DNA from: Escherichia coli
Lineage (GTDB): Bacteria; Pseudomonadota; Gammaproteobacteria; Enterobacterales; Enterobacteriaceae
Length of the DNA: 1,291 nt
Assembly: GCF_003334255.1 (NCBI RefSeq)
Contig: NZ_QOWU01000165.1
Reading direction: 5' to 3' (one strand)
Position numbers and translations under genes: made by a program. Positions 1 through 1,291 of the stretch are shown here, piece by piece. Numbering within the stretch: position 1 is the stretch's first letter; every line of letters starts with the position of its first letter. The notes beneath the pieces were generated by a model. The model was not told where the DNA came from, searched no databases, and worked only from the letters and a program-made list of their open reading frames with translations.

Positions 1-171
1 GCGCGCCTTGATTTATTAACCGGTAAACGGGTGGTGTCTGTCCAGAAAGATGGTCGCAGAATTGAATATACGGCGGCTTCTCTGGATGAGCTTAACCGGG
101 CGATCAATGATGCGGAGTCGGTACTGGGGACAACCCGGCGTCGCCGTCGTCCGCTGGGAGTGAGGTTATGA
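1..171 (+). CDS. W: 3' end of a phage head-tail joining / head completion protein, lambda gpW-like (5' end outside window)
   Basis: Frame 1 is open from position 1 to TGA at 169..171 and translates to ARLDLLTGKRVVSVQKDGRRIEYTAASLDELNRAINDAESVLGTTRRRRRPLGVRL. The motif LTGKRV-x-VQKDGRR-IEYTA resembles the C-terminal half of lambda gpW as I recall it (…[21 protein letters not shown]…). It sits immediately upstream of, and overlaps, a portal gene, as in the lambda order W-B. Homology is from memory, not a search. Confidence 0.72.
   Translation, partial: ARLDLLTGKRVVSVQKDGRRIEYTAASLDELNRAINDAESVLGTTRRRRRPLGVRL
156..165 (+). promoter_or_regulatory. Ribosome-binding site (Shine-Dalgarno) for the portal gene, embedded in the 3' end of the W-like gene
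   Basis: GGGAGTGAGG at 156..165 is purine-rich and complementary to the anti-SD. GGGAG lies 7 nt and GAGG 2 nt upstream of ATG 168..170. Confidence 0.5.
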
Positions 172-1291
172 AACGAACGCCTGTCCTGATTGATGTGAAC
201 GGCGTTCCGCTTCGTGAGAGTCTCAGCTACAACGGGGGCGGTGCAGGATTTGGCGGGCAAATGGCTGAGTGGTTGCCACCGGCGCAGAGTGCCGATGCGG
301 CCCTGCTACCCGCGTTGCGTCTGGGGAATGCCCGGGCAGATGATCTGGTGCGCAATAACGGAATAGCGGCTAATGCGGTGGCTCTGCATAAGGATCACAT
401 TGTCGGGCATATGTTTCTGATCAGCTACCGTCCGAACTGGCGCTGGCTGGGGATGCGGGAGACCGCAGCAAAAAGCTTTGTCGATGAGGTGGAGGCGGCC
501 TGGTCGGAATACGCCGAAGGGATGTTTGGCGAGATCGACGTGGAAGGAAAACGCACGTTCACGGAATTTATCCGTGAAGGTGTGGGCGTTCATGCGTTTA
601 ACGGCGAAATCTTTGTGCAGCCGGTCTGGGATACGGAAACCACGCAGTTATTCCGTACGCGTTTTAAAGCCGTGAGTCCGAAACGGGTGGACACGCCTGG
701 ACACGGTATGGGGAACCGTTTTCTGCGGGCCGGTGTGGAGGTCGATCGATATGGCCGTGCCGTCGCGTACCATATTTGTGAGGATGATTTTCCGTTCTCT
801 GGTAGTGGACGATGGGAACGGATCCCGCGTGAACTTCCCACCGGACGTCCGGCCATGCTGCATATTTTCGAGCCGGTGGAGGACGGGCAGACCCGTGGGG
901 CTAATCAGTTTTACAGCGTCATGGAACGGCTGAAGATGCTCGATTCCCTGCAGGCAACACAGCTTCAGTCGGCCATAGTGAAGGCGATGTATGCAGCGAC
1001 GATTGAAAGTGAACTTGATACCGAAAAGGCCTTTGAATATATCGCCGGTGCGCCGCAGGGGCAGAAGGATAATCCGCTTATTAATATTCTGGATAAGTTC
1101 TCCACCTGGTATGACACGAATAGCGTGACGCTGGGCGGTGTCAAAATTCCGCACCTTTTCCCCGGTGATGATCTGAAACTTCAGACCGCGCAGGATTCAG
1201 ACAATGGATTTTCGGCGCTTGAACAGGCGCTGCTGCGGTATATCGCCGCCGGTCTTGGCGTTTCCTACGAACAGTTGTCCCGTGATTACTC
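168..1291 (+). CDS. B: Phage portal protein, lambda gpB family (N-terminal ~374 aa; 3' end outside window)
   Basis: ATG at 168..170 opens frame 3, which has no stop for 1124 nt to the window edge. The translation begins MKRTPVLIDVNGVPLRESLSYNGGGAGFGGQMAEWLPPAQSADAALLP…GNARADDLVRNNG… and contains FEPVEDGQTRGANQFYSVMERLKMLDSLQATQLQSAIVKAMYAATIESELDT and LQTAQDSDNGFSALEQALLRYIAAGLGVSYEQLSRDY. These blocks match lambda portal protein gpB as I recall it; identity looks well above half across the conserved blocks, but that is an impression, not a computed value. A purine-rich Shine-Dalgarno sequence lies upstream and the start overlaps the upstream gene's stop. Confidence 0.93.
   Translation, partial: MKRTPVLIDVNGVPLRESLSYNGGGAGFGGQMAEWLPPAQSADAALLPALRLGNARADDLVRNNGIAANAVALHKDHIVGHMFLISYRPNWRWLGMRETAAKSFVDEVEAAWSEYAEGMFGEIDVEGKRTFTEFIREGVGVHAFNGEIFVQPVWDTETTQLFRTRFKAVSPKRVDTPGHGMGNRFLRAGVEVDRYGRAVAYHICEDDFPFSGSGRWERIPRELPTGRPAMLHIFEPVEDGQTRGANQFYSVMERLKMLDSLQATQLQSAIVKAMYAATIESELDTEKAFEYIAGAPQGQKDNPLINILDKFSTWYDTNSVTLGGVKIPHLFPGDDLKLQTAQDSDNGFSALEQALLRYIAAGLGVSYEQLSRDY

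Follow-up and report, generated by a model that had tools for sequence, protein, structure and literature searches.

The adaptor and portal genes of a phage 21-type lambdoid head module in a 1291-nt stretch of Escherichia coli DNA

Phage 21 (genus Jouyvirus) has been studied for decades. In its annotation gp3 is a head completion (or proximal head completion) protein and gene 4 encodes the portal; PMC9119081 describes the genome record of this phage and lists M81255 as an earlier fragment. The equivalent proteins of phage lambda, gpW and gpB, have solved structures (PDB 1hyw and 8k38 for gpW; 8k38, 8xot and others for gpB). The roles of the adaptor, its Arg32 and C-arm, and the stopper are taken here from cryo-EM of the lambda neck (PMC10721106), and docking of terminase on the portal via the C-terminal tether of the large subunit has been reported (PMC4669245, PMC9026076).

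We analyzed a 1291-nt stretch of E. coli DNA, hereafter the window, which is filled by two open reading frames (ORFs) on the same (+) strand. The genes and the signals at their junction are:

1..171, + strand: gpW-type head-tail adaptor (Ad1 / head completion) gene, homologous to lambda W and to gene 3 of phage 21; 3′ part, from codon 13 to codon 68 and the TGA stop
157..160, + strand: GGAG, putative Shine-Dalgarno sequence of the portal gene, located within the 3′ end of W and 7 nt ahead of the portal ATG
168..171, + strand: ATGA, in which the start codon of the portal gene overlaps the stop of W; evident in the sequence itself
168..1291, + strand: portal gene, homologous to lambda B and to gene 4 of phage 21; first 374 of its 530 codons and 2 further nt

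Each of the two genes is incomplete, being cut by one end of the window. Translation of frame 1 (nt 1..171), which is cut at its 5′ end, gave 56 codons followed by TGA (169-171), and the 56-residue product, ARLDLLTGKRVVSVQKDGRRIEYTAASLDELNRAINDAESVLGTTRRRRRPLGVRL, corresponds to residues 13-68 of the 68-aa protein encoded at the identical locus of E. coli JE86-ST05 (L001 11965..12171). The portal ORF starts with the ATG at 168, runs for 374 codons without a stop to nt 1289 and is cut at its 3′ end. It represents residues 1-374 of the 530-aa portal of the same JE86-ST05 locus (L001 12168..13760), where the ORF is complete. About the first 70% of the portal gene therefore lies in the window, and the cut falls shortly ahead of the tunnel loop, which together with the crown corresponds to lambda residues 378-511. 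The ATGA overlap is the arrangement expected for translational coupling and, together with the putative ribosome binding site inside the end of W, suggests that translation of W and of the portal gene may be coupled. The phage 21 record annotates the sequence identical to this GGAG (2813-2816) as a ribosome binding site.

The portal fragment scored 491.2 bits against the NCBIfam equivalog model TIGR01539 (portal_lambda; cut-off 172.7) over profile positions 1-327 of 457, and matched Pfam PF05136 (Phage_portal_2) at 8.2e-88 over model positions 2-331 of 354, both matches being shortened by the window end alone. It also matched PHROG 21 (2.4e-132) and, by phmmer, the lambda chain 8k38_A, 'Portal protein B' (E 2.4e-146, residues 5-374), with six more PDB entries matching. 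A 560-aa chain named 'Portal' (PDB 8vhx_D) matched residues 29-374 at 6.7e-56. The W fragment scored 50.7 bits against NF047331 (cut-off 33) and matched PHROG 75, 'head-tail adaptor Ad1' (2.5e-24). When the full 68-aa W of the identical locus was used, Pfam gpW (PF02831) was matched at 1.3e-22 over model positions 3-66 of 66, and lambda gpW (PDB 1hyw) at 3.3e-15. As judged from these profile and structure matches, the window genes belong to the lambda-family portal and gpW head-tail adaptor families.

The window was 100% identical to part of a chromosomal prophage of E. coli JE86-ST05, and a script-based comparison with L001 12001-13291 confirmed the match base for base. The same 100% identity was found at chromosomal loci of JE86-ST02, UCPROB-001 and UCPROB-002, which makes four assemblies in all among the complete E. 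coli genomes. Phage PhiR5_1 (PV340545) differed at 1 nt (99.9% DNA identity), and phage 21 (M81255, OL657228) was 98.8% identical across all 1291 nt. A megablast search against 50,697 phage records returned 20 hits, all of them Escherichia phages and all of phage 21 type. The window sequence was present in 1864 of 5426 complete E. coli genomes (about a third) at 3030 places, with a median of 2 and a maximum of 5 per genome, and nearly all copies were 95-100% identical to it. By its near-identity to genes 3 and 4 the window falls within the phage 21-type head module (Jouyvirus and relatives), and almost certainly it is the W/B-equivalent segment (genes 3 and 4) of the late (morphogenesis) operon in an E. 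coli lambdoid prophage of phage 21 type; no result of the analysis spoke against this. A preliminary description made from the letters alone had called it a lambdoid W-B head-assembly module; this was borne out, including the 374-aa length given there for the second product and the order of W then portal as in the lambda late operon, which is seen in the window, in JE86-ST05 and in phage 21, but the precise identity, the phage 21 head module, had been missed. The same description rightly took the DNA to be biologically ordinary. The segment is already known and very common.

Seven of the E. coli places were plasmid-borne. One E. coli record had a match of 60-80% only; in another, UTME-6, the match is limited to the final 124 nt.

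The gene order around the window was read on loci identical or near-identical to it. In JE86-ST05, TerS and TerL lie directly upstream of W and the portal gene; the portal gene is followed downstream by genes for a gpC-type S49 peptidase, for D (head decoration), for E (major capsid) and for FI and FII, and after FII the lambda-like tail genes are present in full as far as gpJ. The order TerS-TerL-W-portal-S49 protease/scaffold-D-E-FI-FII-tail, that of a lambda-type head morphogenesis module, was common to the three records compared (JE86-ST05, phage 21 and PhiR5_1), and the terminase genes predicted upstream and the gpC protease/scaffold and major capsid genes predicted downstream by the preliminary description are found in these loci. 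The meaning of the window is chiefly one of annotation: it shows where the head genes of a lambdoid prophage of phage 21 type lie, and an annotator can expect terminase genes upstream and protease/scaffold, decoration and capsid genes downstream.

Further upstream of the terminase genes (L001 1..9000), the JE86-ST05 prophage carries a Q antiterminator, a DNA methyltransferase, tRNA-Ile/Arg/Arg and a TerB-family protein, and its late region continues with DUF3927, a SASA-family esterase, a holin, a truncated YdfR pseudogene, a lysozyme and a lysis protein. This region upstream of terminase is presumably akin to the late region of Shiga-toxin phages, but the annotation of L001 1..9000 contains no toxin gene.

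Variation was analyzed among 11 copies: the window itself, six copies from E. coli prophages and four from phages (phage 21, PhiR5_1 and two others). The other copies differed from the window by 1 to 57 substitutions, with 100 variable sites together. In the portal stretch, third codon positions accounted for 73 of the 93 variable sites, variable codons were synonymous-only in 66 cases vs. amino-acid-changing in 18, and a stop codon was found in none of the 11 copies. Purifying selection acts on both reading frames.

The assignment to a phage 21-type prophage was weighed against two other origins of the same sequence. A lambda origin (phage lambda itself, a laboratory lambda derivative or a cloning-vector arm) has in its favor that W (68 aa) and the portal (530 vs. 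533 aa) agree with lambda in length, that the two genes come in the same order and that lambda shares the ATGA junction. The portal, however, is just 60% identical to lambda gpB at the protein level (223/371 residues, E 2e-156, BLASTP) and 61.7% at the DNA level in a codon alignment, with mismatches at the three codon positions of 119/88/218, and W is about 52-55% identical to lambda gpW overall (28/51 residues, E 1e-19, BLASTP), in both cases a similarity well beyond chance. No lambda record appeared in the megablast search, and near-identity to W and B of lambda proper (Lambdavirus lambda, NC_001416) was not found. These identity values rule out lambda proper and render such an origin so improbable as to be negligible, and they agree with the earlier judgement that the DNA comes from a distinct lambdoid phage or prophage. 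A decayed, non-inducible prophage remnant, in which the genes would keep the same identity and have no current function, is a more serious proposal. Many lambdoid prophages of E. coli are defective, and copy number per E. coli genome has a median of 2 and a maximum of 5; the O157:H7 PV15-279 copy has a frameshifted portal, and the identical JE86-ST05 locus has a truncated YdfR-family pseudogene in its lysis region. The frameshift of PV15-279 indicates that some of the many E. coli copies are decaying. In the window, however, no break is seen in either frame, the head and tail genes of the 100%-identical JE86-ST05 locus form a complete set without interruption, a 99.9% identical copy is carried by the deposited phage record PhiR5_1 (host given as E. 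coli C), and the variation is mostly synonymous. We consider a remnant rather unlikely and retain the reading of head genes of a phage 21-type prophage. In PV15-279 the portal gene (L006, 2683491-2685082) is recorded as a pseudogene with a frameshift; this falls outside the 1291 nt considered here, which are intact in that strain.

The antisense strand raised the question of a different gene content. Two minus-strand ORFs, 648..1154 (168 aa) and 306..593 (95 aa), matched PHROG 19427 (8.9e-36) and PHROG 22532 (2.6e-13), both of unknown function, as would be expected if real genes were embedded in the portal gene. The two ORFs, however, sit in the shadow frame, in which antisense codon position 1 is sense position 3, and this frame stays open where the sense gene avoids TTA, CTA and TCA, of which there are only 3 among the 374 codons. 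When the 11 copies were read in the antisense frame, variable codons were synonymous-only in 7 cases vs. amino-acid-changing in 72, and stops occurred at positions that shifted from copy to copy. The substitution pattern led us to reject both ORFs as genes, and embedded antisense genes are extremely improbable. The PHROG matches are therefore put down to conservation of the portal DNA and, probably, to mis-called ORFs in some records; PHROG 19427 and 22532 were probably built from such antisense ORFs inside portal genes. The sense-strand pair of adaptor and portal is the content that we retain.

Other elements were sought in the window. No RNA family was matched on either strand when all 4227 Rfam families were searched at E up to 1, a scan of the window for sigma-70 promoters gave 0 sites, and the repeat search found no direct repeats in the window. 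A terminator-like hairpin inside the portal gene (578..558, - strand; 8-bp stem, then a T-rich tail) was rejected as a chance occurrence, one being found when shuffling gave an expectation of 1.6 ± 1.3. A weak 16-nt inverted pair, 760 nt apart and with 81% complementarity, was likewise rejected as chance.

To locate the distance from lambda within the portal, domain boundaries were carried over by pairwise alignment from the cryo-EM model of the lambda virion (PMC10721106). The wing, stem and clip segments align to lambda with a single one-residue gap. The domains in the window are:

228..905, + strand: portal wing domain, first segment; window residues 21-246, lambda gpB 24-249; 134/226 identical
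906..995, + strand: portal stem helix, first segment; lambda 250-279; 25/30 identical
996..1184, + strand: portal clip domain; lambda 280-342, exposed outside the capsid; 29/63 identical
1185..1259, + strand: portal stem helix, second segment; lambda 343-367; 20/25 identical

The stem helices are 80-83% identical to lambda. The capsid-contact loop in the wing (window residues 205-215; lambda 208-218) has 3 of 11 residues identical, and in lambda this loop adapts to the capsid protein (PMC10721106). The variable loop of the clip comprises window residues 298-325 (nt 1059-1142), and its part that is disordered in the lambda model (lambda 303-319) has 2 of 17 residues identical. By these counts the clip loop and the capsid-contact loop are the least lambda-like parts of the portal. 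In W, the beta-hairpin (residues 23-36) is identical to lambda at 10 of 14 positions, and Arg32 is conserved in both; helix 2 is identical at 5 of 18 and the C-arm, which binds the portal in lambda, at 7 of 14. The preliminary description had noted that the C-terminus of W and parts of the portal differ from lambda, and these values bear out both remarks.

Divergence from lambda is concentrated on partner-touching surfaces: in the portal these are the capsid-contact and clip loops, and in the adaptor the second half of the protein. Terminase-prohead docking is said to be type-specific between phage 21 and lambda, reportedly from work of Yeo and Feiss in 1995, which PMC9026076 cites. From work on lambda and phage 21 we infer that the lambda-divergent clip loop and the C-terminal half of the adaptor may carry type-specific contacts with their partners.

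The clip also stands out among close relatives. Of the differences between the window and phage 21, 12 of 16 nt lie within 1049-1214 (portal clip), and all four portal amino-acid changes sit in clip-loop residues 298-319. Among the 11 copies, residues 298-325 held 6 of the 18 amino-acid-variable codons (binomial probability 0.0015, a post hoc and uncorrected value, the interval having been picked after seeing the data). These observations fit a surface-exposed clip loop that is either weakly constrained or specificity-bearing. Because the loop is the least lambda-like part and amino-acid changes are enriched in it among copies that are 95-100% identical, it might be proposed that residues 298-325 form a fast-evolving specificity surface that tunes the docking of terminase, of the adaptor or of a hijacking satellite (a PICI-type island), and that the many co-resident copies (up to 5 per E. 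coli genome) would thereby be kept functionally insulated from one another. We regard this proposal as a long shot.

The published genetics of lambda and phage 21 predict that the window allele is functional as portal and adaptor, and the PhiR5_1 allele (99.9% identical) supports this prediction, short of proof. By analogy with lambda and phage 21, the assembly roles of the two products would be as follows. The adaptor and portal genes would be expressed on one transcript of the late (morphogenesis) operon. Twelve portal subunits would, by homology with lambda, form the unique DNA-entry vertex of the prohead; the terminase-DNA complex would dock on the portal via the C-terminal tether of the large subunit, and DNA would be pumped through the channel. 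After packaging, twelve gpW-type adaptors would assemble under the portal clip via their basic (electropositive) top and the C-arm, which would extend a portal beta-sheet, and the adaptor Arg32 would clamp the DNA end. The FII stopper ring would next dock on the adaptor ring, followed by the tail.

The resemblance to described systems is graded. The JE86-ST05, JE86-ST02 and UCPROB prophages show no difference from the window within its 1291 nt, and these prophages and PhiR5_1 share the same flanking head genes. Phage 21 has the same ATGA junction, ribosome binding site and neighbor genes as the window and its identical loci, and differs from the window by 16 substitutions, 11 synonymous and 5 non-synonymous (W R59C; portal G298E, D309E, T313S and S319N). 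Lambdoid phages are mosaic, so that the rest of the carrier genome may differ from phage 21. Lambda is more distant: it has the same Pfam/NCBIfam families, the same gene order, proteins of like length and the same ATGA at the W/B junction, in contrast to the near-identity that links the window to genes 3 and 4 of phage 21.
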